This document shows positions 3,776-31,345 of a stretch of DNA of 32,000 nucleotides, piece after piece. The stretch is from the NCBI RefSeq assembly GCF_000007185.1, contig NC_003551.1:695456-727455 (forward strand), read 5' to 3'. Numbering within the stretch: the stretch's first letter is position 1; each line of letters starts with the position of its first letter. Source of the DNA: Methanopyrus kandleri AV19. Lineage in GTDB: Archaea; JAADCQ01; Methanopyri; Methanopyrales; Methanopyraceae. The notes under the pieces were generated by a model. The model was not told the DNA's origin. It saw nothing but the letters and a program-made list of their open reading frames with translations, and ran no database searches. Both the position numbers and the translations under genes were made by a program.

Positions 3776-4636
3776 TTGAAACTCTCCGTCCCCGGTGCCC
3801 TGACGGGCTTTTTTCACCCGCAGCCCGGTAAGACGCCGAAAGACACAGGATCGCCCGGCTTCGGCCTAGCCGTCGATTCCGTTGTGATCGTACGTGTCCG
3901 ACGCCTTCGGGCTGAGCGTCTCAGAGTTCGCGCAGATCATCCAATCGACTCTCGAATAGCCCGGAAGTGCTACGAAGTGCTCGATCCCGATGGGGGCCTC
4001 AGCGTTCGTTACGAATTCTCCGTACCCCCTGGTTGCGGCTTAGGGACCAGTGCGGCCTCCGCCCTGGGAACGTTGGCGGCCGGGGCCGCCGAGATAGGTC
4101 TCGAGGTGAGCCCCGAGTGGATCGCACGTCGCGCTTACGAGATAGAGCTAGAGCTAGGTACGGGCATCGGTGACGTGGTAACGATCTGGCACGGCGGAGC
4201 CGTCCTCCGGGTCGGACCCGGGTACCCGGACGAGGTTCTCATCCACCGAATACCAGTCGAACCGGACCTCCGTGTCCTGATCTATGAGCCCCGACCTATC
4301 GAGACTCGCGAGGCACTCGATGGACTTTCGGGCACCGAGGTAGCCCTCAGGTACCTGAAGGAACTCGAGAGGCACCCGGATCTCGAACTCGCGCTCCGTA
4401 GGTCGTTGGAATTCGCCGAACGGCTCGGATTCTCCGAGGAAGTTAAGCTCGCCAAGGAGCTCTCCCACAAGCACCTGGGAGCTTCGATCGCCATGCTCAG
4501 TCGAACGGTTTTCGCGGTATCGTGGGAACAGGATCCACAAGCCGACGTCGAGCTCCCTGTATCCTGCAGCTCCTTCCCGGAAATCATTTCAGGAATTTCC
4601 GAAATTCAGTGTGAACGGGGACTGAGAGATGTGTGA
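3776..4636 (+). CDS. GHMP-superfamily kinase, archaeal pantoate-kinase-like
   Basis: GHMP motif PPGCGLGTSAASALG. N-terminal VPGALTGFF and GTGIGDVVTIWHGG resemble the archaeal COG1829-type pantoate kinase family as I recall it. TTG start immediately after the sucD stop. Confidence 0.6.
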   Translation: MKLSVPGALTGFFHPQPGKTPKDTGSPGFGLAVDSVVIVRVRRLRAERLRVRADHPIDSRIARKCYEVLDPDGGLSVRYEFSVPPGCGLGTSAASALGTLAAGAAEIGLEVSPEWIARRAYEIELELGTGIGDVVTIWHGGAVLRVGPGYPDEVLIHRIPVEPDLRVLIYEPRPIETREALDGLSGTEVALRYLKELERHPDLELALRRSLEFAERLGFSEEVKLAKELSHKHLGASIAMLSRTVFAVSWEQDPQADVELPVSCSSFPEIISGISEIQCERGLRDV

Positions 4637-4805
4637 GTTCACTGTCAAACTAGGTGGTGAGGTGATCGCGGAGGACGTCCTGTACCTGGAAGTGACGGAG
4701 GAGGGTGTCGTACTGCGCGACGTGATGGGGGAGGAACAGGTGATCGAAGGTGCCCAAGTCAAGCGCATCGACATGGACGAGCACGTGGTGGAGCTCGAGC
4801 GCTGA
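4629..4805 (+). CDS. CooT-family small protein (58 aa, putative nickel-binding/formerly 'predicted RNA-binding')
   Basis: ATG at 4629 overlaps the upstream stop by 8 nt. Translation: MCEFTVKLGGEVIAEDVLYLEVTEEGVVLRDVMGEEQVIEGAQVKRIDMDEHVVELER. The N-terminal Met-Cys-Glu and alternating beta-strand pattern match CooT/PF10133-type proteins. Missing from the ORF track because it is under 60 aa. Confidence 0.6.
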   Translation: MCEFTVKLGGEVIAEDVLYLEVTEEGVVLRDVMGEEQVIEGAQVKRIDMDEHVVELER

Positions 4806-4841
4806 CCCCCAGTTCAGGTCCCGACCCCGGGCACCGAGGAT

Positions 4842-4860
4842 CGTTATGGACACCATAACG
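4842..4860. terminator. perfect 8-bp hairpin CGTTATGG-ACA-CCATAACG between convergent genes
   Basis: Read directly. It lies in the 88-nt convergent spacer between the CooT-like ORF and pyrF. Its core is related to the palindrome 3' of tRNA-Lys. A terminator role is inference. Confidence 0.3.
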
Positions 4861-4893
4861 GTCATGAGTGGGGCTCGGCGCTCATGGGACTCG

Positions 4894-5550
4894 TCACCGT
4901 TCGGCCGGCCTGGAAGTCCTCATCGCCCGAGTCAAATCCTTCGCCGCTTCCACGGGGTCGTGCGCTTCCGTGATCGCCCGACCGACTATCTCGAAATCCG
5001 CACCAGCTCGCACCGCGTCACCGGGCGCCGCTCCCTGAGCTCCTACACCGGGGCTGGCGATGAGCTTGTCGGTGATCTTCCGGACCTCCCGGACTCTCTC
5101 GGGTCTCGTCGCCGGGGCCACGTACCCGACAACACCGTCGATGTCGTCGCATGCTTTAACGATGTCCCGGCAAGCTCGATCGTAGAACTCCCGCGCCCCC
5201 GGGTGACTCATCGTAGCTACCACGAACACCGGTAGCACCTCAGCGCATTCCTCGACGACGTCCGGACCTACGAACCCGTGAACTATGGCGGCGTTGGCGC
5301 CGGCCTCGCTCACACGCTCGACGATCGACCGCGATATCTCCGGAATGTCCGCCGTTTTCAAATCCACGAGCAGGAACGATTCTTCTAGCACTTCGGCGAC
5401 CCGCTCTATCCCCGCCGCCCCTTCGGCCAGCACCACTTCGTACCCTACTTTGAACCCGTCGACGTATCCGTCAAGTGTTTCCGCGATCTCCACCGCGCGA
5501 TCCGGTGACACGTCCAGCGCAACGATCAGGCGCGTATCGGGTTCGAGCAC
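4894..5550 (-). CDS. pyrF: orotidine 5'-phosphate decarboxylase
   Basis: LIVALDV ... GFKVG ... LLVDLKTADIPEI (D-x-K-x-x-D catalytic motif) and the C-terminal GADFEIVGRAI. Confidence 0.85.
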   Translation of the reverse strand: MLEPDTRLIVALDVSPDRAVEIAETLDGYVDGFKVGYEVVLAEGAAGIERVAEVLEESFLLVDLKTADIPEISRSIVERVSEAGANAAIVHGFVGPDVVEECAEVLPVFVVATMSHPGAREFYDRACRDIVKACDDIDGVVGYVAPATRPERVREVRKITDKLIASPGVGAQGAAPGDAVRAGADFEIVGRAITEAHDPVEAAKDLTRAMRTSRPAER

Positions 5551-7661: not shown

Positions 7662-8066
7662 TCACTCTTCCTCCTTGATTCCCACAATTTTACGCTTGCC
7701 CGCTGCCTCCATGTACTCCACCATGGTTCCCGGTTCAAGCTGCGAGGCGAGTTCCTCGTCCTCCGGCTTCTGAACTTCGAATGTCTCGTAGGTTTCCATA
7801 TCCATCAGCTGCACCGTATCACCCATATCGGAGACTACCTGGGCTGTCTTCCGCTCGATCACCGGTACATCCACCTTCGCGTCCACCGGTTTAGTAAGCG
7901 TGCGCTTCTTACCGTCGAACAGCCCTACCGCTACGATCCGCGCCTTCGCCGAACCGTGCTTACCCGGTGAGGACGTGGTGTACTCCACAATCTTACACGG
8001 CTCGTCGTCGATCATGATGTACTTGCCCTTCTTAAGCTGCCGCACCTCGACTTTCTTCACGGCCAC
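7662..8066 (-). CDS. eif5a: translation initiation factor 5A (aIF5A, hypusine-containing)
   Basis: [35 protein letters not shown] contains the hypusination loop GKHG-AK. GTG start preceded by a G-rich SD-like tract. Confidence 0.95.
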
Positions 8067-8114
8067 GTCCAGAACCCCCTTCCCGGAGTGTCACGGCGCG
8101 AGCGAGATCCCTCC

Positions 8115-8124
8115 TAATAAGCTT
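8115..8124. promoter_or_regulatory. only A/T-rich island (TAATAAGCTT) in the 74-nt divergent aIF5A/pdaD spacer; candidate shared TATA element
   Basis: Position and composition only. It lies about 50 nt from the aIF5A GTG and about 20 nt from the pdaD TTG. Confidence 0.25.
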
Positions 8125-8140
8125 CGCGAGGGGGATAGGA

Positions 8141-8596
8141 TTGCTGGGAGTACCTAAGAAGTACGCCCTAGTATCCGGAACCGGCGAGGCAGATACGTCC
8201 CTAGCGGCCTTCGACGCCGCGCTGATCGATGCGGGGATAGGTGACTGCAACCTCGTGGAGCTGTCCAGCATACTTCCCCCGAACGCTGAGGAGGACGACC
8301 TTCCGGAGTTCCCACCCGGGTCCATAGTGCCGGCCGTAGTAGCGAAGGCCGTGGGACGCGGCCTGGTGTCGAGCTGCATCTGCGTAGGAAGGCTGGAGTC
8401 CGGTCTCGGGATCGTTTCGGAACGGGCCGCCACCGATAGCGTAGAAACGGTTCGGAGGCTCGCTAAAAGGGACGTCGAGGAGATGGCTAGACTCCGCGGT
8501 GAGAAGCTCGTGGAAGTGCGCACGGTCACGGCTTCTACCGAGCCCGAGGACGCGGAATGGGCGGCGGCGGTAGCGGCGGTGGTCTTCTGGGGGTGA
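8141..8596 (+). CDS. pdaD: pyruvoyl-dependent arginine decarboxylase
   Basis: SGTGEADTSLAAFDAALIDAGIGDCNLVELSSILPP. The Ser-Ser self-cleavage site and flanks match the PdaD family. TTG start. Confidence 0.9.
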   Translation: MLGVPKKYALVSGTGEADTSLAAFDAALIDAGIGDCNLVELSSILPPNAEEDDLPEFPPGSIVPAVVAKAVGRGLVSSCICVGRLESGLGIVSERAATDSVETVRRLAKRDVEEMARLRGEKLVEVRTVTASTEPEDAEWAAAVAAVVFWG

Positions 8597-8602
8597 TCTC
8601 GA

Positions 8603-9616
8603 GTGAGAGAGACCGTCGAGAAGATCGTCAAGGAGCGGGTTTTACCGGAGGTATCCAAGGTACGTCGTGGTTGGGTCGAAGTCGGTAGGGGTGCGGACGG
8701 AACTCCGACGATGCGGGTGGACGAGGTAGCGGAGCGGGAGTTCCTCCGCGGGTTAGAAGAGGAGGGCGTGGACGCGAGGGTAATCAGCGAGGAATCCGGT
8801 GAGATGCGTGTGGGTGAGGCCCCCGAGGTAACGCTGGTCTTAGACCCGCTCGACGGCTCACACAATGCCAGTCGCGGTCTTCCGTTCTACTGCGTTTCAG
8901 TCGGTATCGCCGATCCGGAGGCCGAGACTCTGGATGACGTGGAAGAGGGTTTGGTGGTTTCGGAACTGCTGACCTTCGGTCCCGGTGACGTCGAAGAGAA
9001 GCCGGTGGTGGAACGCCCGCTGGTTTCGGCGTACTACTACGGATCGGACCGGATGCCGGTTGAGTTCTCCCGGGGTCGTTTCAAGCTCCGTTGCTTGGGG
9101 TCAGTGGCCTTGGAACTGGCTTTAGTGGGGAAGGGAGCTCTGGACGGGTTCGTAGACGTTCGGGGCAGTCTGCGCCCTACGGACGTAGCGGGGGCATTCG
9201 GAGCTGCGCGAGGTGAGCTAGCCTTCATATTCGCGCGGAACGGTCGGGAGCTGGATCCTTCTGAGATACCACTGCGACCGGACTTCCGCTTCGAACTGGC
9301 AACGGCCCGGAGCGAAGATGAGGCTCGGGAGCTCTTCGAGGCCCTGAAGGAGGACGTGGGTATCCGTGTGGCGCAGCGTCTGTTCGGTAAGCATCCCGAA
9401 GGACTCTCGGAACACGCTCTGTGCGGTAAGTTAGGTGAGGAATGCTGCGAACTGGCTCACGCCGTGGGTAAGGAAGAGGGGTACGGGGAGGAGCTCGCGG
9501 ACGTGTTCGCTCTCGTCATGAACCTAGCGAACGAGCTCGACGTGGACGTTTTGACGGAACTGCGGCGTAAGTTTCGGAGGGTGTTCGGATGTTCCGACCG
9601 CAGGTCGTCGGTGTGA
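8603..9616 (+). CDS. inositol-monophosphatase/FBPase-family phosphatase (NADP-phosphatase-like) fused to a C-terminal MazG-like NTP pyrophosphohydrolase domain
   Basis: IMPase motifs ISEESGE, LDPLDGSHN and RPTDVAGA. The C-terminal ~75 aa (KLGEECCELAHAVGKEEGYGEELADVFALVMNLANELDVDVLTELRRKF) follow the MazG/all-alpha NTP-PPase helix pattern. The 3' end overlaps nadK by 28 nt. Confidence 0.7.
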   Translation: MRETVEKIVKERVLPEVSKVRRGWVEVGRGADGTPTMRVDEVAEREFLRGLEEEGVDARVISEESGEMRVGEAPEVTLVLDPLDGSHNASRGLPFYCVSVGIADPEAETLDDVEEGLVVSELLTFGPGDVEEKPVVERPLVSAYYYGSDRMPVEFSRGRFKLRCLGSVALELALVGKGALDGFVDVRGSLRPTDVAGAFGAARGELAFIFARNGRELDPSEIPLRPDFRFELATARSEDEARELFEALKEDVGIRVAQRLFGKHPEGLSEHALCGKLGEECCELAHAVGKEEGYGEELADVFALVMNLANELDVDVLTELRRKFRRVFGCSDRRSSV

Positions 9617-13775: not shown

Positions 13776-14132
13776 TTGGGTGAGGAGACTGGCGGTGACT
13801 ATCACGTCGTGCTCGAGGCCGCGTGGATCGTGTACAACGTCGACGACGAGGACGACGCTATCAACATCGCCATTGCCGAGGCGGGTAAGCGCTTGAACCG
13901 ACACGGCCTCGATTACGTGGATATCGATGTCGGGTTTTACGAGTGTCCTGAATGTGGTAATGAAATCGAAGGTGTGTGGATAGTAGCAGGTACAGCCCTC
14001 GTCCGACTGATTCTATCGATGCGAGTGTTCAACGCGGAAAGCGAGGAACACGCCATTCGCATCGCTAAGTACGAGATCGGTCAAGCGCTGGAGGATGTAC
14101 CCTTAGGTGTCGTTGAAGTAACTCCGCTCTGA
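13776..14132 (+). CDS. conserved archaeal protein, UPF0212/DUF555-like, with one CxxC
   Basis: [33 protein letters not shown] ... YECPECG resembles the UPF0212 family as I recall it. TTG start. Confidence 0.55.
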
Positions 14133-14136
14133 CCAT

Positions 14137-15246
14137 TTACTTACCCCTTACGAGATGCGCCCATATTAGCGCCGAGAGCAACGTGAACGTAGCCAAGGCG
14201 AAGGAGTTCATCGCCCTAGAGAACAGGAATACTCCTATCAGTGATTGGACTGAGAACGCGATCAGACAACCGAAGAGCATGGCCTCTCTCGCCAGGAATC
14301 TCGCCGTCATCCTACGCCTTCGTAGTTTTATGTACTCCGAGAGGCACCTCGATCCCACGTATAGTGTGGCCGCGACCCATATGGACAGTAATACCGCCCC
14401 GATGTACCCGAAGTCGAAGGCCCAGGTGAACAAGCCAGGCAGCATGTAATCGAGAAGGTCCTTTTTAACGACGAGTGCTCCATGTAGTGTAGGTACGTCG
14501 AGCCGGAACATCATGAGATATCCGACAGGCAGTGTGACGAACCCGTCACCGAAGCCCCGCCACTCGTATCCGGCGGGAAGCGCCTTCGTGGAGTGACCGA
14601 TGATGTGCGTGTTCTTCGCCACGAACTCGAGTCCCGGTACGGTGTATTCCGCGAATCGCTTGATACGGAGTGTCGGGCTGAACACGGGCTTATTCAGGAC
14701 GTAAGCGAGCAGTTCCAGGAGACCGAGGAAACCTATGGCCATCAGCGTGGCCATCACGATCGACCTTTTGCTCATCTTAGCTGCTCGGGCGGCAAAAGCG
14801 CGGAATCTCGACTCCACTTTCAAGTACTTCGCTATGAAATGCTCCGTAAGCGCCCAGCATAGGAACCAGGAGAGTAGGAAGTCACGATGCATAATTCCTC
14901 CGACCATTCCCACGTACACCCATAGGAGATTGAAGTATGGCCGAGTACGTCGGGCCGCCGTGATACCACGGGTTTCGAGCAGTTGCAGGAGGTACCTCGA
15001 GGTCGCCCAAGCGGCGAGTGCCAGTGGGCCGAACGGGTGCGTAAACTCGTGGCGTGATACGGGGAGGAACAGCGAGAAAGCGTCCACGGTGAATAGAAGG
15101 GCCAGCACTCCCAGTGTGAAGAGGGACAGTGAGAGGACCCTCTGTACCGTTACCGAGGAATAGCTCAGGGCGAACGGTATCGTCAGGTGGGTGATCACGA
15201 AGAAGTCCAGGAGGGCTTCACCCGTGTTATAGGGGACCACGTACAA
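14137..15246 (-). CDS. polytopic membrane protein (~9 TM) with large external loop and SEDS (FtsW/RodA)-like C-terminal motif; last gene of the cell-wall operon
   Basis: Hydrophobicity pattern. An ~80-aa loop is followed by LPGLFTWAFDFGYIGAVLLSIWVAATLYVGSRCL ... RFLAREAMLFGCLIAFSVQSLIGVF. Compare the SEDS block LPExHTDFIFaviGEElGfiGa ... Rf..lla.G......Q.fiN. 1-nt gap to the upstream gene. The functional call is hypothesis. Confidence 0.55.
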   Translation of the reverse strand: MYVVPYNTGEALLDFFVITHLTIPFALSYSSVTVQRVLSLSLFTLGVLALLFTVDAFSLFLPVSRHEFTHPFGPLALAAWATSRYLLQLLETRGITAARRTRPYFNLLWVYVGMVGGIMHRDFLLSWFLCWALTEHFIAKYLKVESRFRAFAARAAKMSKRSIVMATLMAIGFLGLLELLAYVLNKPVFSPTLRIKRFAEYTVPGLEFVAKNTHIIGHSTKALPAGYEWRGFGDGFVTLPVGYLMMFRLDVPTLHGALVVKKDLLDYMLPGLFTWAFDFGYIGAVLLSIWVAATLYVGSRCLSEYIKLRRRRMTARFLAREAMLFGCLIAFSVQSLIGVFLFSRAMNSFALATFTLLSALIWAHLVRGK

Positions 15247-16969: not shown

Positions 16970-18400
16970 CTAGATCGCCCCCATATCGCGCAGGACCTCT
17001 CGAGCAGGTTCCATTCCTTGGGCTCCTCCCAGTAGAATCACGGTGTCGTCGTCCGCCAAGTCCAGTGCGCGCTCCAAAGCGTCTTCTAACCGATCGTAGT
17101 GCTCGTAGTCGATGCCGGAGCGCTCCAGTTCCTCCAGGAACGCCCTCCGCTCCTCAGGCCGCACTACGTTAGCATCGTCCACGAGGCCCTCTGATGAGGT
17201 CGCGATCACGTGGACGTGGATTCCCTCGTCCTGTAGATCCTTCGCGCCTTCAGCCAGCGCCCGAGCGATTTGACGGTTAATGTCGACGCCACGCGACCCG
17301 CGGATCGCGAACACAACAATCACCTTGGAGCGACCCAACCGTCGCAGGGCGCGAACAGTGGCGAGTACTCCGTCGGGATTGTGGCAGAAATCGTCGTAAA
17401 TCAGCGGGTCGTCGCACAGGCGTTCGAACCTCCGCTTCAAGGGTTGGTACGTCCTCAAGCCTTCGGCGATATCCTCCCGATCTATTCCTAGAGCTCCCGC
17501 GGCGGCTACGGCGGCCAACGCGTTGTACAGGAAGTGGTCCACCGGTAGGGGGAACTCCCGGACGGGTATTAGGGGTTCTTCGTCCAGTACTATCCACTCC
17601 TCCCCGTCGCGTTCCTCAATGTGGGAGTATCCTTCGTCCCATCCGTACCATACCGTCTCCACACCTTCCCTGGTCATCCGCCGTACGTACCGATCGTCAC
17701 GGTTGAGCACCGCGATACCTCCCTTTCGTAGGGCCCGCACGACACCGTATACAGCGTCAACCATCTCTTCCAGAGAGGAAACCAGGTTCGTGTGGTCCAC
17801 CCCGACGTTCGTCACGACCGCCAGCTCGCATTTGAGGGCCTTCGCCATCCGGTAGGCGTGGTCCTCCATTATTCGACCCGTAGGTAAGCCTTGTACCTCA
17901 GATACCTCCACGCACAGGTAATCTTCCGGCCGTTCCTCGCGCAACTCCATCGCGACCACGGGGTCTATGAGGGTGTTCTTCTCGGAACGGAAATCCGTGT
18001 TGCAGTAAGCATCGAAGCCGGCGGTATCGAGGATGTGGTGAAGCAAGTGATTCGTAGTCGACTTACCGTTAGTTCCCGTCACGCAGATCGCGGTAGCGTC
18101 AGGGGCGCACTTCTCACGGGCTACGCGCAGAGCGTACTCGTTCGCCCGATCCACCTCCGTCAGGATCAAGGGGATTCCGAGCTCGTCGCATCTCTCGATC
18201 AGCTTGCCGCGCGGGTGTTCAGTCACCAGACATGCCACGCCTCTCTCCGACGCGATCTCGGCACCTTTATCGTCCAACCACCATCGGATCACTACATCTC
18301 CTTCTTTCGCCCTTCCTAACGTGGAGAACCATCCGGCGATCATACTATCCGGGTCGCCTGAGCGTATTTCCCCTTCCACATTCTCAGCCAGCTCCCTCAC
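16970..18400 (-). CDS. Mur-ligase family protein (MurE/MurF-like; pseudomurein peptide ligase candidate)
   Basis: P-loop VTGTNGKSTT, TNVGVDH, DDFCHNPDG and a C-terminal Mur-ligase domain (VVFAIRGSRG ... ILLGGAQG). Confidence 0.85.
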   Translation of the reverse strand: MRELAENVEGEIRSGDPDSMIAGWFSTLGRAKEGDVVIRWWLDDKGAEIASERGVACLVTEHPRGKLIERCDELGIPLILTEVDRANEYALRVAREKCAPDATAICVTGTNGKSTTNHLLHHILDTAGFDAYCNTDFRSEKNTLIDPVVAMELREERPEDYLCVEVSEVQGLPTGRIMEDHAYRMAKALKCELAVVTNVGVDHTNLVSSLEEMVDAVYGVVRALRKGGIAVLNRDDRYVRRMTREGVETVWYGWDEGYSHIEERDGEEWIVLDEEPLIPVREFPLPVDHFLYNALAAVAAAGALGIDREDIAEGLRTYQPLKRRFERLCDDPLIYDDFCHNPDGVLATVRALRRLGRSKVIVVFAIRGSRGVDINRQIARALAEGAKDLQDEGIHVHVIATSSEGLVDDANVVRPEERRAFLEELERSGIDYEHYDRLEDALERALDLADDDTVILLGGAQGMEPAREVLRDMGAI

Positions 18401-18421: not shown

Positions 18422-19492
18422 TCACCCCACGGAGATCCAGAGTGCCACGGCGGCGAACACCGCTCCGGCGGTCCAATGGAGCGCCACAACCACGGGTTCG
18501 GGTAGGTCGTACTTGTACTGGATATGGTGGTGGAGAGGTTCCACAGCCAACCGGATCACGCCGGCTCGGTGAAGCAAGCTGATGAGCGTGGACAGTACTG
18601 GGACTCCTAAGGCGATCATAGCAGGTATCTCGATCTTGTAATATAGTGCTCCTGCCGCGTAAGCCGCCCCTAAGAAGCAACTCCCCGTGTCTCCCATGAA
18701 GATCTTAGCCGGGTATCTGTTATGGAACAGGAAACCCAGGGACGCTCCGGCAAGTGATGCGAAGAAGGCAGCACCCGGAAGCTGGCCCTGTCCCAGGCAT
18801 ACGCCGGAGCAAGCCAGTGAGGCCAGGAACAGCAGCCCGGCGGCCAGACCGTCCATCCCGTCGATGAGGTTCACGGCGTTGGTAGCGCCGACAATTCCGA
18901 ACACCGCGACCGGATAGAAAAGGTACGAGAGGTTCCAAACGCCGACCTTGGGTATCCAGAGCCATGTGGCGGGGACGATAGGAAGAACGAAGAGGGCGGC
19001 GCCAGTCTGTAGTGCGAGTTTCTCACGTTCACTCAATTCTTTCTTGATAGGCACCTCACCGACGATCTCGATGGCATCCGGGTCCTCTTCGAGTATCCTC
19101 TTCAGATCACGTTTCGCTTTCTCCGTGGCTACACGTGCCTCCTCGCCCGGTTGTAGTATGAGTCTTCCCAGCTCGATCGGTCGATTCGAGACGTTCCGTA
19201 CGACCTTCTGGAACTCTTCCACCTGCAATCCGAGCAGGTCGTCCACTATTCCTAGCACCATCATGGGGAGCGCTGAAGCTATAGGAGGGAGCGCCTGGAT
19301 GGAAGCTAGGAGGGGGCCGGACGCCGTTCCCAGTAAGATCCCCAGACCTCCCATGATGGGCATGCCGGACTTATGCGCGTGTTCCGTTACGATCGGGCGG
19401 TCTACCACGTTAGCTTCCCGCATGTACTTGCGGAGTAATCCAACCGTTACGGCCGAGGTTACTGTGGAGAGTGTAAACGTCTCGATGATCAT
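18422..19492 (-). CDS. MraY/WecA-family polyprenyl-phosphate phospho-sugar transferase (GT4)
   Basis: LGIVDDLLGL, NAVNLIDGMDGLA and FMGDTGS. There is an unusual ~75-aa charged insertion (EEFQKVVRNVSN ... KKELSEREKLA) between TM segments. Confidence 0.85.
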   Translation of the reverse strand: MIIETFTLSTVTSAVTVGLLRKYMREANVVDRPIVTEHAHKSGMPIMGGLGILLGTASGPLLASIQALPPIASALPMMVLGIVDDLLGLQVEEFQKVVRNVSNRPIELGRLILQPGEEARVATEKAKRDLKRILEEDPDAIEIVGEVPIKKELSEREKLALQTGAALFVLPIVPATWLWIPKVGVWNLSYLFYPVAVFGIVGATNAVNLIDGMDGLAAGLLFLASLACSGVCLGQGQLPGAAFFASLAGASLGFLFHNRYPAKIFMGDTGSCFLGAAYAAGALYYKIEIPAMIALGVPVLSTLISLLHRAGVIRLAVEPLHHHIQYKYDLPEPVVVALHWTAGAVFAAVALWISVG

Positions 19493-19508: not shown

Positions 19509-20648
19509 TCATAAGTACTCCTCGATTTCCCTCAGCCTCCGTCGATACTCACGTTCGGCCCGCTTCACGTCCGCTCCTGCAGCCTTGAGCGCTGAGCGGA
19601 GCCTCGTGAGGGCTTCTTTAAAAGAGTCCCCCCTCACGGTGACACGACCACCTACGTCGAAGCGTCCATAGTACTCGTAGAACACGTGGTACACTCCGCC
19701 GTCGAACATCTCACGCAGGGGATCCTTGTCCGTAGGGCGCCAAACGGGACACTCGATGGCGCACCATAATTTCCTTATCTTCGGTGGCCTCCATCGATCG
19801 GCCGCCATATCGACCAGCTCACGGAGCGGCCATATTCCCGTGCATCCGGACGTCATGTACCTGGTGCCGCTGGGTCTCGGGTTGAACTCGAGGAACCAGA
19901 ACTCGTTCTCCCGGACTACCACGTCGAAGTCCACGTTGCCCTCCAGTCCCAGATGTTCCACGACTCTTACCGCGCACCTTCTTATCTTGCGCTCCACGGA
20001 CGGGTCGATCGGGGCCGGGCTCATCCGCATACGATCGATCGGATGACGACGGTCCGCCGTGGATCCTTTGAACACCGGAACCAGCGGCACCACCTCACCG
20101 TCCCAGGATAGAACTTCGATCGAAACTTCCGCACCTTCGATGAACTCCTCTACCAGCTTACGTCCCGATACTCTCGGCTTGTGCGTCTCGTGGACCGTGA
20201 CTCCGAGCCCCGCCTGTGACCGTGGATCCTTCACGACTACCGGTGGACTGATCGATGGCCTTTCGTTCTCGACGACTTCCCATTCAGGCGTCGGTACGTT
20301 CAGTTCTTCGAAGGCGCGTTTCGTTCTCACTTTATCGATCCCGATTTCAACGCTCTCGCGATCAGACGCCACAACCCGGATACCTTCGGCTTCCAGCTCT
20401 TCTTTCATCTCCCCCACTGCCGGTAGCGGATCGTCTACACCGATGAGTGGTACTACACCGTCTACGTGCCGCTCGCGGGCGATTCTCGTGGGATGTTCCA
20501 TACCGCGCGGTACGAAGTGCACCTCATCCGCCAGCTCCCAGTCCCTGCTCCTCGGGTTCGACTCGGTGAGTATACGGTACACTCCCGTGGAGCCGGCGTA
20601 CTCCGCCACGTCCCGGAGTAGCCTCGCGCCGACGAAGAGTACCTTCAC
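19509..20648 (-). CDS. ATP-grasp ligase (carbamoyl-phosphate-synthase/Ddl-like)
   Basis: Pre-ATP-grasp Rossmann MKVLFVGA, ATP-grasp body (KVRTKRAFEELNVPTP ... VVVKDPRSQAGLGV ... LVEEFIEG ... FLEFNPRPSG). 4-nt overlap with the upstream Mur ligase. Confidence 0.8.
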   Translation of the reverse strand: MKVLFVGARLLRDVAEYAGSTGVYRILTESNPRSRDWELADEVHFVPRGMEHPTRIARERHVDGVVPLIGVDDPLPAVGEMKEELEAEGIRVVASDRESVEIGIDKVRTKRAFEELNVPTPEWEVVENERPSISPPVVVKDPRSQAGLGVTVHETHKPRVSGRKLVEEFIEGAEVSIEVLSWDGEVVPLVPVFKGSTADRRHPIDRMRMSPAPIDPSVERKIRRCAVRVVEHLGLEGNVDFDVVVRENEFWFLEFNPRPSGTRYMTSGCTGIWPLRELVDMAADRWRPPKIRKLWCAIECPVWRPTDKDPLREMFDGGVYHVFYEYYGRFDVGGRVTVRGDSFKEALTRLRSALKAAGADVKRAEREYRRRLREIEEYL

Positions 20649-22183
20649 CTTTCGTCCCCCAGCACTCGCTCGACTTCTTCAGAGATCTCTTCCCGGTACT
20701 TCAGCGGAGCCTCTCCGAACAACACTACCACTTCGCAGTCCGAGCGGAGCGCCTCCTTGAGACCGTCCAACACCTGCTCCCGAGAGGCACCCAGTGTACC
20801 CTTCTTCTCGAACGGCTTGGTGGCGCTCTCCGCTGCGATCACGTTGTCGGCGTCGACGCGGTCCATGACTTCGTACGCCGCGTACGATGCCACCACCACT
20901 AGGTCGGCGAGATCCGCAGCTCTTCTGAGTATCTCTTCGTCTCCTTCCGGTCCCAGCTCCGAAGCTACGGCGATTACCGCGCAGACGCGCCGCTCCCGGT
21001 AAGCCTCCTTCACGCATCTCAACGTCGCGTCCACGCCGGCGGGATTATGGCCGTAGTCTAAGATCACGACTCGCTCGCCGTCGTCCCAGAGTACTTCTAA
21101 CCTGCCCTCGACTCCTTCGAAGGACTGTAGCGCCTCTACCACGTCCTCCACATCAAGTCCCAAGAACTCGGAGCAGACGGCTATCGCCGCGAGGGCGTTG
21201 TAAGCGTTGTGGAGCCCCATCACGGGTAGTCGAACCTCGTACTCCCCATCGGGACAGATCAGTCGGAACCCGGACAAGTCAACGTCCGTAGCTAGGTAGT
21301 CCGGCTCGGGAGATCGCAGGCCACACTCCCGGCACTTGAAGGGACCGACCCAAGGGAGGATCTCATGGACTTCAACGTGTCCGCCGCACCAGCACTCTTT
21401 TTCCGAGGTATCGAACGGTTCCACGTCCAACCCGTAGTACACGATATCGCCGTTGAAATCCACCACCTCGGGGGCACCAACTACCAACGGGTCTTGAGCG
21501 TTCAGCACGGCTAGCTCGATGGTGTCCGGCTCCAACAGTTCGGCCTCACATCTGGCGTACGTCAGGAAATCGCCCGCCTCGTTCAGATGGTCCGGGGTGA
21601 TGTTGGTAACGCAGACGCACTCCACCTGGGATAACTCCGCGGCTTCCAGGATCTCCCCTCTCTTCCCGAAAGTTGCTATCTCTAAGACGCTGACGTCCCC
21701 TGGGAGACGCGCCTGAAGTGGGGGGAGTAATCCGACGTTCCCTTGCATGCCCGGCAAACCGTGGTGCGGGGCCTCGAGCCCGAGTTGCTCGCACACGTGC
21801 CTGATCATCGCCACAGTCGTGGTCTTCCCGTTGGTCCCACCGACTCCGATCACCGGTCGTGTGGGCGGTAACATGTCGAGGAGCTCCTTCACTTCCACGA
21901 TTTCGCAGCCGTGATCCTCGGCCAGTCGGTACGGCTTAGCATCGCGTGATAGGCTCGGAGGAGGTACCACAACTTCGGCTCGTTCGAAGATCTCGGGTGG
22001 GTGGCCTCCCAATACGAGCTCCACGTTACTGTATTCGAGAAGCGTCTCGGCGAACTCGCACTCATCCCGGAGATCCGACGCGATCACATCGTATCCGCGC
22101 TCCGCGAGGACCCGGGCCGCTAGATTGCATACGGGCCCACAGACCCCGATCACGAGAACGGTCGACCAGGGAAGTTCGGCCAA
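20645..22183 (-). CDS. Mur-ligase family protein with MurC/D-like N-domain and MurT-like Cys4 zinc ribbon insertion
   Basis: N-terminal Rossmann LVIGVCGPVCNLAARVLAERGYDVIASD. P-loop GVGGTNGKTTT and TNITPDHL. Ribbon CWCGG-x17-CRECG at nt 21323-21394. DYGHNPAG. TTG start. Confidence 0.85.
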   Translation of the reverse strand: MAELPWSTVLVIGVCGPVCNLAARVLAERGYDVIASDLRDECEFAETLLEYSNVELVLGGHPPEIFERAEVVVPPPSLSRDAKPYRLAEDHGCEIVEVKELLDMLPPTRPVIGVGGTNGKTTTVAMIRHVCEQLGLEAPHHGLPGMQGNVGLLPPLQARLPGDVSVLEIATFGKRGEILEAAELSQVECVCVTNITPDHLNEAGDFLTYARCEAELLEPDTIELAVLNAQDPLVVGAPEVVDFNGDIVYYGLDVEPFDTSEKECWCGGHVEVHEILPWVGPFKCRECGLRSPEPDYLATDVDLSGFRLICPDGEYEVRLPVMGLHNAYNALAAIAVCSEFLGLDVEDVVEALQSFEGVEGRLEVLWDDGERVVILDYGHNPAGVDATLRCVKEAYRERRVCAVIAVASELGPEGDEEILRRAADLADLVVVASYAAYEVMDRVDADNVIAAESATKPFEKKGTLGASREQVLDGLKEALRSDCEVVVLFGEAPLKYREEISEEVERVLGDER

Positions 22184-22235: not shown

Positions 22236-23240
22236 TCACGGCCGCGCTCCCGGTATCGTTCGGCCGTACTCGGCCAGTATCGACCTCATGAGCTTTTTAA
22301 CGTCGCGAAGAAGGCGTTCGGCTTCCTCCCTGTCACCGGTCGCTAACCGTACGAACGCTTCGATATCGAGGTGTTCCACCCGGTCGTCGATCTTTCCGTA
22401 CTCCGACATTACGAAGTACAGTTGCGTGAACCTCTCCCTCCGCTCGACCCTGTTGAGGGTTCCGCGTACCAGCGACCTCAGGGCTTGACGTGCGTACATG
22501 AGCAGCCGGTACGTGAGGTCTCGGATGATTTCATCCTCATCTCTCGGTCCGTCCGGGATACCGTTTGGGAACGCTGCTTTCTCTTCCAACCCCAAGATAT
22601 CCAGCACGCGTTCCGGATCCTCCTCTGGGGTCTCCGTCTCCCGGAGGTACGCTAGGGCCTCTTGAGGTGTTGCCACACCTTCCAGCATGATGGTACATGC
22701 GCGACCTGTCAGAGGGTTGTACCCGACCTCCTCTATGAACCTGTGCACGCCGTACGGACGGATCGGACACGTGTACTCGGGATTGAACCAGCCCAGACTG
22801 CTCACGATATCGCGGATGTCTTCCCACGTCCACCGACGGAGTGCCGGGTACCGGACCACGGTGACTCCTGGAGGGTAGGGGTGGGTAGTGCGTCTCCCGA
22901 ACTTCCCGCGGAGCTCGTGACCGGTGAGGACTGTTGCGCATCCTAGTTCACGGGCGCGAAGGCACGCGGCGGTTAGGACGCTTCTACCACACTTCGTACA
23001 TATCGGGCGTCCTTCCTTCAGAGCCCGCGCGAACCATTCTCGAAGTCGTAGCTTGACCACCTCGTGATCCACGCCGACGTGTTCCGCGGCTTTCCGGGCG
23101 TTCTCTAAACATGTCTTATCGGTGAACTCGTGGACTACTGTTACGGCTACCTTAACATTCCACCTATCGGCGGCGTCTATCAGCGTGGCTACACTGTCCT
23201 TACCGCCGGAAAGTGCTATGCTGGAGGGAGGGCTAGTCAT
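22236..23240 (-). CDS. PP-loop ATP pyrophosphatase (TtcA/TilS-like N-domain) with unassigned helical C-terminal half
   Basis: SGGKDS PP-loop. CTKCGRSVLTAACLRARELGCATVLTGHE resembles the CxxC...GH block of TtcA-type enzymes. The ATG overlaps the gltX stop by 8 nt. Confidence 0.7.
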   Translation of the reverse strand: MTSPPSSIALSGGKDSVATLIDAADRWNVKVAVTVVHEFTDKTCLENARKAAEHVGVDHEVVKLRLREWFARALKEGRPICTKCGRSVLTAACLRARELGCATVLTGHELRGKFGRRTTHPYPPGVTVVRYPALRRWTWEDIRDIVSSLGWFNPEYTCPIRPYGVHRFIEEVGYNPLTGRACTIMLEGVATPQEALAYLRETETPEEDPERVLDILGLEEKAAFPNGIPDGPRDEDEIIRDLTYRLLMYARQALRSLVRGTLNRVERRERFTQLYFVMSEYGKIDDRVEHLDIEAFVRLATGDREEAERLLRDVKKLMRSILAEYGRTIPGARP

Positions 23241-25197: not shown

Positions 25198-25275
25198 GGG
25201 CCGGCAGCTCAGTCTGGCTAGAGCGCGGGACTTTTAATCCCGTGGTCCCGGGTTCAAATCCCGGCCGGCCCACCA
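25198..25275 (+). tRNA. tRNA-Lys (anticodon UUU), genomically encoded CCA, C at position 8
   Basis: Hand-folded cloverleaf: acceptor GGGCCGG/CCGGCCC, D arm GCTC-AGTCTGGCTA-GAGC, anticodon arm CGGGA-CTTTTAA-TCCCG, variable TGGTC, T arm CCGGG-TTCAAAT-CCCGG, discriminator A, CCA. Confidence 0.9.
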
Positions 25276-29315: not shown

Positions 29316-30029
29316 GCGGAGTGAGGGCAATCCGGCTCCGCGAACGCCGATCAACACGTCACCGGGTGTTGGGAGCTCGAGGACGGGACAGAACACATCG
29401 CTGCCACCCGCGATCGTCCCTTCGTACTCCACCCAAGTAAAGAACGCGTATCCCGGCTCCGGAGTTTCGTACTCGAACTTTTTGGGGATGGGTTTGTCGG
29501 TCCGGATTACCTCAAGTGGTTCGATGTCTTCTGGGAGACCCGGCCGATATCTCGGCGTCCTAGGTGGTCGGCGGATAGGGTTGGCCCCAATCCGCACTTC
29601 CTGTGGCACGATCGTCGGTTCATACCTCTCGAGAACGGCGTTGATGACGGGTACGAACTTCTCTTCTAGGAGTAGTGTGTCGATCATCTCACATGCTACC
29701 ACATCGGCGTTCACATCCACATCCCGCGCGTCCCCTACTACTACCTCCCACTCCACGTCGTGCGGGACGTGTTTCCTGAGGTTCTTCTCGAGAAGTCGGG
29801 CTCGTTTGGGATTCTTTTCTACGGCGATCACGCGCTCGGCGCCGGCGTGGGCTGCAACCACCGATAAAGGTCCTGTGCCGGCTCCAAGGTCCGCGAAAGT
29901 GTCCTCTGCGACTTCCGCTACCATCGAGGTGAAGACGAAAACGCGCCTTACGTCACGGAGCAGGTCGAGCTGGTAGGAGTCTACCAACAGCTTGAACTCA
30001 CCTACTGGAGTTCTTATGGTTTTAATCAT
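29283..30029 (-). CDS. class I SAM-dependent methyltransferase with PRMT-like motifs
   Basis: Motif I FADLGAGTGPLS, post-I VIAVEKNP, motif II plus acidic loop DVVACEMIDTLLLEEKFV (compare the PRMT double-E loop SEWMGYxLLxE). ATGA overlap with the upstream NYN gene. Confidence 0.7.
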   Translation of the reverse strand: MIKTIRTPVGEFKLLVDSYQLDLLRDVRRVFVFTSMVAEVAEDTFADLGAGTGPLSVVAAHAGAERVIAVEKNPKRARLLEKNLRKHVPHDVEWEVVVGDARDVDVNADVVACEMIDTLLLEEKFVPVINAVLERYEPTIVPQEVRIGANPIRRPPRTPRYRPGLPEDIEPLEVIRTDKPIPKKFEYETPEPGYAFFTWVEYEGTIAGGSDVFCPVLELPTPGDVLIGVRGAGLPSLRSYTPEHQDHT

Positions 30030-30565
30030 TCGTCACTCACCACATCCTTAGCTTCTTCGGGTTTCTCTTCTTTCCCCTCTGATTCCCGCTCCTTGCGCGG
30101 TTTAAGCTTGATTACATAGTCTGCCGCATTTTGTAGTGCTGTACTAAATCCTGGATCTGCTCCTATTACAATGGTGACCTTACCCTGCTCCTTCGCCTTA
30201 GCTATAATTGGAAGAAAGTCAGTGTCACGCGTCATTAGTGCGATTGCGTCGACGTTATCACTGTAAATAAGTTCCATTGCCTCAACCGCTAAGTACACAT
30301 CAACGTCTCCCGGAATCACTCTAGGAACAAAACCCTGATTGGCTACAGCTTCAATAAGTTTGTCCGAAGCGTATTGGTTCAGGAACGCTAATCCTACTCT
30401 AATATTACCCAATTCTTCAACTAATTCTCTAACCTCCTTCAAACTGACATCGAACTCTTTACGGAGCATATTCGGTCCGTCAATCAACATTGCAATGTCA
30501 AGATTGCCCCGCTTAGCTTTTCTCTTGATTACACCACTCATATAATCTTTGACCGTATCGAGCAA
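30026..30565 (-). CDS. NYN/LabA-like (DUF88) PIN-fold ribonuclease domain protein with Lys/Glu-rich tail
   Basis: IAMLIDGPNM ... DVDVYLAVEAMEL ... ALMTRDTDFLPII ... VIGA is the NYN acidic-residue pattern. TTG start with GGAGGTG 8 nt upstream. Markedly low G+C. Confidence 0.8.
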   Translation of the reverse strand: MLDTVKDYMSGVIKRKAKRGNLDIAMLIDGPNMLRKEFDVSLKEVRELVEELGNIRVGLAFLNQYASDKLIEAVANQGFVPRVIPGDVDVYLAVEAMELIYSDNVDAIALMTRDTDFLPIIAKAKEQGKVTIVIGADPGFSTALQNAADYVIKLKPRKERESEGKEEKPEEAKDVVSDE

Positions 30566-30586
30566 CTCATCACCACCTCCAGTCGG

Positions 30587-31345
30587 TTAACGTGCTGGGC
30601 GCTCGGGTTCATAGACTCTCAACTTACACTCTCCACCGGGAGAGAAGTGGTAAGGGAACTCTTCCACGACGGCCGCGTCTACGACCCCCTGTCGCGTCAA
30701 CACGGCTGTAAGGTGAGGGCACGACTGAGAGTAGAGCACTACAGGGCCCTTATGAGAAGCTAGGAACCTGCGCACCGAACCGTTGGATAGTACCATTCCC
30801 GTAGAGAGCAATACGGATTCACCGAACTTTATATTCCTCTCGACCCGGAGACGTGGATCCTCGTCTACGATCTGAAGGAGTATTCCGCGATCCCGTAGTT
30901 CTCGCGCTATGTGGGCGGAGTATCCCACCAGTATCACCTCATCGCCGAGCTTTTCGGCGGTGTCGGCGACGATCTTCGCTCGGAGGGTAACGGCTCTGCC
31001 GTAGTCCCTGGGCAAGCTGATCTCCTCCTCAGGCTCCACGTTCTCCGCGCTCGCCACCGCATCGAGGGCTGCGCTCCGGGCCTGAGGCTCCTGAAACCTG
31101 CGCCACACTTCCTTCAGCTTCAGTCCCAGTATCTCCCGGAGTCGGAGGCATTTCTCGGGGTGGAGTGACGCTCCTTCCAGCCCTCTTTCCGTTTTGATTA
31201 GCGTAACGATATCGTCGTGGACGCGGTCTCCGCCGGGTGGCCTCCTGTATCCCTCCAGGGCGAGTGCCGCCGCTACTCGGTCGTTCTTACCCTCCGCTAT
31301 CAGCTCCCTTACTACCCTCGAATAGAGCTTCCAGCGCCTCTTCAT
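30587..31345 (-). CDS. conserved hypothetical protein, DUF364-like Rossmann C-domain (tentative)
   Basis: EVILVGYSAHIARELRDRGILLQIVDEDP ... SVLLSTGMVLSNGSV ... VVLYSQSCP resembles the DUF364 'putative chelation' domain layout. Start taken at MKRRWKLY. The track ORF extends to 31441. Confidence 0.4.
   Translation of the reverse strand: MKRRWKLYSRVVRELIAEGKNDRVAAALALEGYRRPPGGDRVHDDIVTLIKTERGLEGASLHPEKCLRLREILGLKLKEVWRRFQEPQARSAALDAVASAENVEPEEEISLPRDYGRAVTLRAKIVADTAEKLGDEVILVGYSAHIARELRDRGILLQIVDEDPRLRVERNIKFGESVLLSTGMVLSNGSVRRFLASHKGPVVLYSQSCPHLTAVLTRQGVVDAAVVEEFPYHFSPGGECKLRVYEPERPAR

Follow-up and report, generated by a model that had tools for sequence, protein, structure and literature searches.

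The DNA analyzed here is a 32,000-nucleotide (nt) window of the Methanopyrus kandleri AV19 genome (contig NC_003551.1, positions 695,456 to 727,455). At positions 14137-15246 on the minus strand, it carries a gene for a 369-amino-acid (aa) polytopic membrane protein, which belongs to the same family as OG0000796 of Lupo et al. (2025, mSystems, PMC11915815). We propose, with moderate confidence, that this protein is a transferase of the GT-C_B type with nine transmembrane (TM) helices, which would act on a lipid-pyrophosphate-linked glycan, most likely as the pseudomurein glycan polymerase. The protein is a candidate for this missing enzyme because its predicted fold resembles GT-C_B proteins, its conserved site lies at the membrane's outer side, its family occurs only with pseudomurein, and its gene shares an operon with precursor genes in Methanopyrales. 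OG0000796 has been described as a pseudomurein-specific polytopic membrane protein of unknown function, whose gene in Methanopyrus sp. KOL6 lies just downstream of OG0001472 (Mfer764) (PMC11915815; the paper writes OG0000796 three times and in its Table 1, but OG0000766 once, probably a typographical error). The identical 369-aa protein is already on record and clusters with Methanopyrus kandleri/Methanopyrus sp. proteins. In full-text literature searches on pseudomurein biosynthesis, no paper was found that gives it a polymerase role or a fold of the SEDS, WaaL, or GT-C type; new here for OG0000796 are its match to the GT-C_B fold and the hypothesis that it is a polymerase.

Open reading frame (ORF) analysis places the start of the gene at a TTG codon, which agrees with the N-termini of the aligned orthologues. 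The initial annotation of this DNA, made from its letters and translations, had described a 369-aa protein with about six TM helices, an outward loop of about 80 aa, and three more helices. This layout, with a loop of ~86 aa, is borne out both by hydropathy and by an AlphaFold2 model for which 31 homologues were used (predicted local distance difference test score [pLDDT] 80, predicted template modeling score [pTM] 0.83). In the model, TM1-TM6 span residues 8-29, 34-58, 73-92, 96-119, 121-142, and 160-184, while TM7-TM9 span residues 271-312, 315-341, and 348-365. The loop between these two modules holds an amphipathic helix (residues 191-212), and model confidence within it is low at residues 224-227 and 249-263. 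Lysine and arginine number ~22 in the predicted cytoplasmic loops versus 3 in the short outer loops, and we therefore place the N-terminus and the big loop outside and the C-terminus inside; an RRRR loop at residues 309-312 is cytoplasmic. The peptides to which the annotation had drawn attention, LPGLFTWAFDFGYIG and RFLAREAML, are present at residues 269-298 and 316-340 (nt ~14227-14442).

To place the fold, we compared the model with 350,542 PDB chains using Foldseek, with 50 matches listed per model. The top match was FtsW (8p1u_A; probability 1.00, TM-score 0.46, E 0.015). A second FtsW structure, 8bh1_A, also matched with probability 1.00 (TM-scores 0.41/0.43; E-values for FtsW were 0.015-0.02). 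The O-antigen ligase WaaL came next (7tpg_B; probability 0.94, TM-scores 0.41/0.39). The remaining matches listed had probabilities of at most 0.11 and TM-scores of at most 0.19. We then modeled the orthologue from Methanothermus fervidus, which is 36% identical and also has nine TM helices (pLDDT 82, pTM 0.85). Among its listed matches, the sole one above background was again WaaL 7tpg_B (probability 0.92, TM-scores 0.43/0.39), followed by a match of probability 0.14; the E-values for 7tpg_B were 0.1-0.2 across both models. A background control against the BFVD viral structure library gave nothing above probability 0.16 or TM-score 0.28. The clan GT-C1 is characterized by conserved residues on the outer face and by a long extracellular loop near the C-terminus with Arg and Asp/His (PMC10920833), and the M. 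kandleri protein has this architecture, with conserved outer-face residues and a loop (residues 185-270) followed by three TM helices. Altogether, the fold appears most like the GT-C_B class, which includes both SEDS proteins and O-antigen ligases, at modest scores that do not rank SEDS and WaaL relative to each other.

The conservation pattern is consistent with an active site outside the membrane. Across 71 full-length sequences, the invariant polar residues are D55, E67, H70, H120, E178, R194, H218, K262, D263, D266, E321, Q334, and R344. The Asp of the FDFG motif (D278; nt 14413-14415), which lies at the outer end of TM7 and whose conservation across orthologues the annotation had suggested checking, is Asp in 70 of the 71 and Glu in the other. 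Thirteen of these 14 (near-)invariant residues fall in outer loops or in the outer quarter of TM helices. In the N-terminal module, the outer-face invariants are D55, E67, and H70 (the latter two within HEFTHPFGP, nt 15025-15051), H120 (within MHR, nt 14884-14892), and E178. In the loop, S190, P191, R194, G217-H218, G235, P240, K262-D263, and D266-Y267..P270 are invariant, and R197 is Arg in 70/71; SPTLRIKR is encoded at nt 14656-14679 and KDLLDYMLPG at nt 14434-14463. In the C-terminal module, Q334 lies in the outer part of TM8 and R344 in the outer TM8-TM9 loop.

The same pattern bears on whether the protein might instead be a flippase or transporter for the lipid-linked precursor, or a non-catalytic scaffold of the wall machinery. 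It is polytopic and operon-linked to a MraY-like gene, as such a protein could be, and a role as lipid II flippases was at one time proposed for SEDS proteins themselves. Yet the dense, invariant, charged residues of the outer face and loop look like an extracytoplasmic active site rather than a translocation path, and the transporter folds in the Foldseek results (MFS, MATE, ABC) reached probabilities of only 0.11 or less. Moreover, MurJ-type flippase homologues have already been reported in pseudomurein archaea (PMC10117817, PMC2812497). We therefore regard a flippase or scaffold role as quite improbable. The annotation had offered a glycan polymerase or a flippase as alternatives, and of these it is the polymerase that is best supported.

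The family is restricted to archaea that make pseudomurein. A word-indexed search with the 369-aa protein found 64 homologues and a family profile found 667. Named homologues belong to Methanopyrus, Methanobacterium, Methanothermobacter, Methanothermus, and Methanobacteriaceae, except for two, a metagenome-assembled genome (MAG) labeled "Methanomicrobiales archaeon" and a "Euryarchaeota archaeon"; the former MAG has both of the paralogues that are typical of Methanobacteriaceae. When 1.84e9 representatives were searched exhaustively with an HMMER profile, 63 matches came back, all of which are family members or fragments and include three full-length 50%-identity clusters; no distant relatives that would bridge to a known family were among them. 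Based on the exhaustive and profile searches, this family is a sequence orphan confined to the two pseudomurein-making orders, Methanopyrales and Methanobacteriales. Within these orders it is highly conserved, with a mean column identity of 65%.

In the window, the gene is the last of a co-directional run that encodes pMurC, an ATP-grasp protein, a MraY-like enzyme, pMurE, Mfer763, and Mfer764 (Table 1). All upstream cluster genes except the ATP-grasp gene pass the curated NCBIfam cut-offs. The run corresponds to the pseudomurein "cluster 2/A" operon described by Subedi et al. (2021; PMC10117817) and Lupo et al. (PMC11915815). Since the candidate gene follows the Mfer764-family gene after a 1-nt gap and is itself followed by a convergent DUF555 gene, we conclude that it closes this operon, as the annotation had stated. 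This arrangement is kept in two more Methanopyrales lineages (L087 and L088), with gaps of 1-4 nt from gene to gene and orthologues that are 63% and 67% identical, so that clustering with pMur and MraY genes is seen in three Methanopyrales lineages in all.

Several observations weigh against a polymerase role. The Foldseek matches are weak (E 0.015-0.2, TM-scores below 0.5, root-mean-square deviations of 8-13 Å). FtsW is absent from the 50 matches listed for the M. fervidus model, and neither model has RodA entries among its 50 listed matches. Model confidence is lowest at residues 224-263, the putative catalytic loop region. The protein has nine TM helices and an outward N-terminus, compared to 10 helices in SEDS proteins and 12 in WaaL. 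At the sequence level, searches of Pfam, NCBIfam, and PDB sequences with the 369-aa protein found nothing relevant, and none of 31 family members matched the PF01098 or Wzy/O-antigen (including PF04932 Wzy_C) hidden Markov models (HMMs) even at E≤10, or any NCBIfam model. Profile-profile alignment with hhalign gave, for the family against a SEDS profile, a probability of 0.3-0.5% and a score of 20, compared to 20-22 for reversed-profile nulls; against a WaaL profile, the score was 18.7, with nulls of 15.5-20.7. Lastly, the orthologues of Methanothermus, Methanobacterium, and Methanothermobacter are located outside the pMur cluster, next to 2-oxoacid:ferredoxin oxidoreductase genes, DUF1002, or DUF1890/DUF1894, so that only Methanopyrales show the operon link. 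In these Methanobacteriales contexts, the one connection to wall genes was that a sortase/RcpC cluster and a transglutaminase-core gene lie loosely nearby.

Given the modest structural scores, the absence of profile similarity to any GT-C family, and the lack of linkage to the pMur cluster in Methanobacteriales, the fold likeness could be coincidental or a modeling artifact. The family would then be a lineage-specific membrane protein of unrelated role, and its adjacency to pMur genes would be fortuitous. We consider this unlikely, although it carries real weight, because both independent models singled out GT-C_B proteins alone among the 350,542 chains and left a wide gap to other membrane proteins. 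The topology and conservation also fit the GT-C_B class, and the phyletic pattern fits pseudomurein exactly. As for the profile comparisons, the positive control was itself at noise: SEDS against WaaL scored 21.3, compared to nulls of 20.5-22.0. Because these two belong to one accepted structural class, the hhalign negatives have little weight. The SEDS profile comprised 39 sequences (E. coli RodA and FtsW plus 37 RodA orthologues of other Proteobacteria) and the WaaL profile 30.

Within the GT-C_B class, we considered how the candidate polymerase relates to the SEDS proteins RodA, FtsW, and SpoVE (PF01098; GT119), which as FtsW supplied the top structural matches of the window protein. In SEDS proteins as in the candidate, a large extracytoplasmic loop with invariant acidic residues at its end precedes three TM helices. 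Genes for MraY and Mur ligases are linked to both; E. coli ftsW lies between murD and murG. In the candidate, the acidic residues are D263 and D266, which are invariant, and D278 (70/71); a non-significant hhalign alignment pairs D263 with the catalytic Asp of the SEDS loop, RodA D262. SEDS proteins have 10 TM helices (PMC10920833), so with nine helices and its N-terminus outside, the candidate apparently lacks the first SEDS helix. The C-terminal LP..SYGGS motif, present in E. coli RodA and FtsW, is absent; a scan for SYGG, YGGS, and GGSS found none in the 369-aa protein, which bears out the annotation on this point. In addition, the candidate is archaeal and confined to pseudomurein organisms, unlike SEDS. 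The annotation had called the protein SEDS-like, and this stands as far as the fold resembles FtsW and WaaL. The protein is not a SEDS member, since it has no HMM match, nine rather than ten TM helices, and no C-terminal SYGGS motif; the family is at most a separate one of the same structural class.

The annotation had also aligned the segment after the loop by eye with the conserved SEDS block (LPE.HTDFIF/EE.G). This alignment has no statistical support, as hhalign scores were at the null level, and we do not take the pairing of LPE.HTDFIF with LPGLFTWAFDF as evidence. In the hhalign alignment, which is non-significant and serves only as a lead, HTD262 is instead matched by KKD263 and EELGxxG by FDFGYxG, collinear with a pairing of E67/H70 with RodA E114/K117. 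We likewise set aside the lone PDB sequence match, to NADH dehydrogenase ND4L (E 0.023; searched with both the single protein and the family profile), as TM-helix noise. Several orthologues (P0041, P0142, and P0158) are named "Oligosaccharide repeat unit polymerase" in UniRef. None of the Pfam or NCBIfam models support this label among the 31 members at E≤10, and it seems to be an automatic prediction, though it agrees with the fold result.

WaaL (PF04932 Wzy_C; GT121; GT-C_B) raises a different possibility, in which the protein, with an unchanged fold and chemistry, would be a ligase that transfers a finished undecaprenyl-pyrophosphate-linked glycan, such as a pseudomurein strand or another wall polymer, to a non-lipid acceptor such as the existing wall. 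WaaL 7tpg_B is the structure matched by both models and, among the matches listed, the only one above background for M. fervidus. WaaL and the candidate share a long external loop near the C-terminus and invariant Arg/His residues in or near it, and the invariant outer-face residues H70, H120, H218, R194, and R344 resemble the two-Arg-plus-His signature of O-antigen ligases (PMC10920833). For comparison, WaaL has R191, R265, and H313 in its periplasmic loop, and the candidate loop has R194 and H218 (invariant) and R197 (70/71). However, there is no HMM or profile similarity to WaaL, including Wzy_C and O-antigen ligase models, the protein has 9 rather than 12 TM helices, and the acceptor of WaaL, lipid A-core, does not exist in archaea. 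If the protein were a ligase, the polymerase step would still be without a candidate, and the strong conservation of the family and its presence throughout pseudomurein archaea suit a core step better than an accessory attachment. We therefore judge a ligase role to be rather improbable.

Wzy-type polymerases (BP-Pol; GT122-GT135) belong to the same class of function that we propose for the candidate, the polymerization of undecaprenyl-pyrophosphate-linked repeat units on the membrane's outer side. The annotation had named a Wzy/O-antigen-polymerase-like relationship as its alternative to SEDS. There was no match to Wzy/O-antigen HMMs, and no solved Wzy structures were among the Foldseek matches listed.

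A pseudomurein glycan polymerase would fill a vacant step in the pathway. The disaccharide-pentapeptide of pseudomurein is built on uridine diphosphate (UDP) and moved to undecaprenyl phosphate by a MraY-like enzyme (PMC10117817, PMC2812497). Undecaprenyl-linked intermediates have been isolated, and the backbone is β(1-3)-linked (PMC10117817). Genome surveys report no PBP-type or other known transglycosylase in pseudomurein archaea (PMC2812497, PMC10117817), and with lipid-linked intermediates present, this leaves a transglycosylase step that the candidate could fill. Leahy et al. (2010; PMC2812497) noted two unnamed pseudomurein-specific membrane proteins, one of which may be the candidate family; Subedi et al. 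(PMC10117817) equate the two with Mfer371 and Mfer259/Mfer218.

From the fold, the conservation, and the operon, we infer the following for the substrate, catalytic residues, and reaction. The MraY-like enzyme, encoded three genes upstream, would load the UDP-disaccharide-pentapeptide onto undecaprenyl phosphate, and a MurJ-like flippase would export the lipid-linked precursor. The candidate polymerase may then bind the undecaprenyl-pyrophosphate-linked glycan at the outer membrane face, where R194, R344, or K262 could hold the pyrophosphate. An acidic or His residue near the loop/TM7 boundary (D263, D266, D278, or H218) might activate the acceptor hydroxyl. Transfer of the donor with inversion of its α-linked anomeric carbon would form the β(1-3) bonds of the backbone, which is the transglycosylase step. 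Inverting use of a lipid-pyrophosphate-oligosaccharide donor is suggested by the MraY-like operon gene and the β(1-3) backbone, and the expected chemistry would be as in SEDS proteins, i.e., inverting transfer from an undecaprenyl-pyrophosphate-linked disaccharide-peptide. Pseudomurein polymerization now has a specific, testable candidate. If the polymerase role is true, the membrane stage of the pseudomurein pathway would be complete, with bearing on a possible common ancestry of the murein and pseudomurein machineries, and the protein would offer a methanogen-specific target in gut and rumen Methanobrevibacter for methane mitigation.

More speculatively, the family could be an anciently diverged archaeal counterpart of SEDS and the long-sought pseudomurein transglycosylase, paired with Mfer764 as RodA and FtsW are with penicillin-binding proteins (PBPs) of class B, with the Methanobacteriaceae paralogues dividing elongation and division between them. 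By analogy with SEDS this is conceivable, although we think it doubtful. The two paralogues are reminiscent of the RodA/FtsW duplication. SEDS proteins have class B PBP partners, whereas pseudomurein archaea have no reported PBP-like gene (PMC2812497). Mfer764, the neighboring single-pass protein, is a possible extracellular partner, though as an analogue of a class B PBP it is speculative. Its N-terminus resembles a signal peptide and its C-terminus a TM anchor; in the center is a zinc-ribbon-like CxxC...CxxC element, for which Pfam zinc-ribbon matches were weak and sub-threshold (best DZR, E 0.006, 17.2 versus a 27.3-bit cut-off), and the protein had no PDB match. If an archaeal SEDS counterpart were confirmed, murein and pseudomurein would share a polymerase besides Mur ligases and MraY, and lipid-linked wall polymerization would date back toward the ancestor of bacteria and archaea, or else to a single early transfer.

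Table 1. Positions of the candidate gene, its modules, and the surrounding pseudomurein operon in the window.
Feature	Position	Strand	Basis
Candidate pseudomurein glycan polymerase (OG0000796)	14137..15246	-	ORF, homologues, AlphaFold2 model, Foldseek FtsW/WaaL
N-terminal module TM1-TM6, residues 8-184	14695..15225	-	Model helices, conservation over 71 sequences
Large extracytoplasmic loop, residues 185-270	14437..14694	-	Model, conservation, positive-inside count
C-terminal module TM7-TM9, residues 271-365	14152..14436	-	Hydropathy, model, conservation
pMurC, pseudomurein peptide ligase, first clear cluster gene	20645..22183	-	NF053645, 641 bits vs cut-off 560
Ddl/CarB-like ATP-grasp protein	19509..20648	-	NF053643 E 4e-95, under curated cut-off; PF02655
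Pseudomurein MraY-family phosphotransferase (makes undecaprenyl-pyrophosphate-linked precursor)	18422..19492	-	NF053644, 452.4 bits vs cut-off 450; PF00953
pMurE, pseudomurein peptide ligase	16970..18400	-	NF053648, 602.8 bits vs cut-off 600; Mur_ligase_M/C domains
Mfer763-family protein, 149 aa, one N-terminal hydrophobic segment	16518..16967	-	NF053641, 171.5 bits vs cut-off 170
Mfer764-family protein, 416 aa	15248..16498	-	NF053642, 571 bits vs cut-off 560
DUF555 gene, convergent, next after candidate gene	13776..14132	+	ORF analysis, Pfam

The Methanobacteriaceae paralogues form two subfamilies of 68 sequences each at a 55% identity cut, and the Methanopyrales are apparently single-copy for the family. 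The loci of one subfamily (L085, L086, and L091; positions 8001-9086) and of the other (L083 and L089; 8001-9083) differ in context: one subfamily always follows a DUF1002 gene, and the other always precedes DUF1890-DUF1894. Three genomes or MAGs have both paralogues (A4E25_00308/_01126, HZC47_05030/_06245, and ACP5C3_06045/_09935). Transglutaminases are proposed cross-linkers of pseudomurein, and in Methanothermobacter, a transglutaminase-core gene lies 2.5 kb upstream of the subfamily-A paralogue (L091 4819-5439; L085/L086 ~4605-5307), and the sortase/RcpC-like genes of cluster C (Lupo et al.) lie 4-7 kb downstream. The M. fervidus orthologue and ftsZ share a strand, the former ~4 kb upstream of the latter (L083 13026-14162). 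Between the two are DUF1890, DUF1894, MetE-like, ThyA, MCH, and PK_C genes, and the link to ftsZ is probably not functional.

Upstream of the operon, a 334-aa ORF (22236-23240, minus strand) lies between the glutamyl-tRNA synthetase gene and pMurC. The sole signature in it is a weak one of PP-loop ATPases (QueC, LarE, WbuX-like; E 1e-4 to 5e-6). In both L087 and L088, an ORF of similar size is found at this place, and the 334-aa ORF might be an unrecognized member of the pseudomurein operon. A scan for promoters and terminators was uninformative, as the consensus patterns used are bacterial. Elsewhere in the window, a tRNA-Lys(UUU) gene (25198-25275, plus strand; 78 nt by ARAGORN, 75 nt in the Rfam match) lies between the glutamyl- and arginyl-tRNA synthetase genes. 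The local G+C content falls to 0.49 at 30001-31000, compared to ~0.60 elsewhere in the window, a region that takes in a NYN-domain gene (30026-30565) and part of an ORF of 284 aa that faintly matches DUF364.

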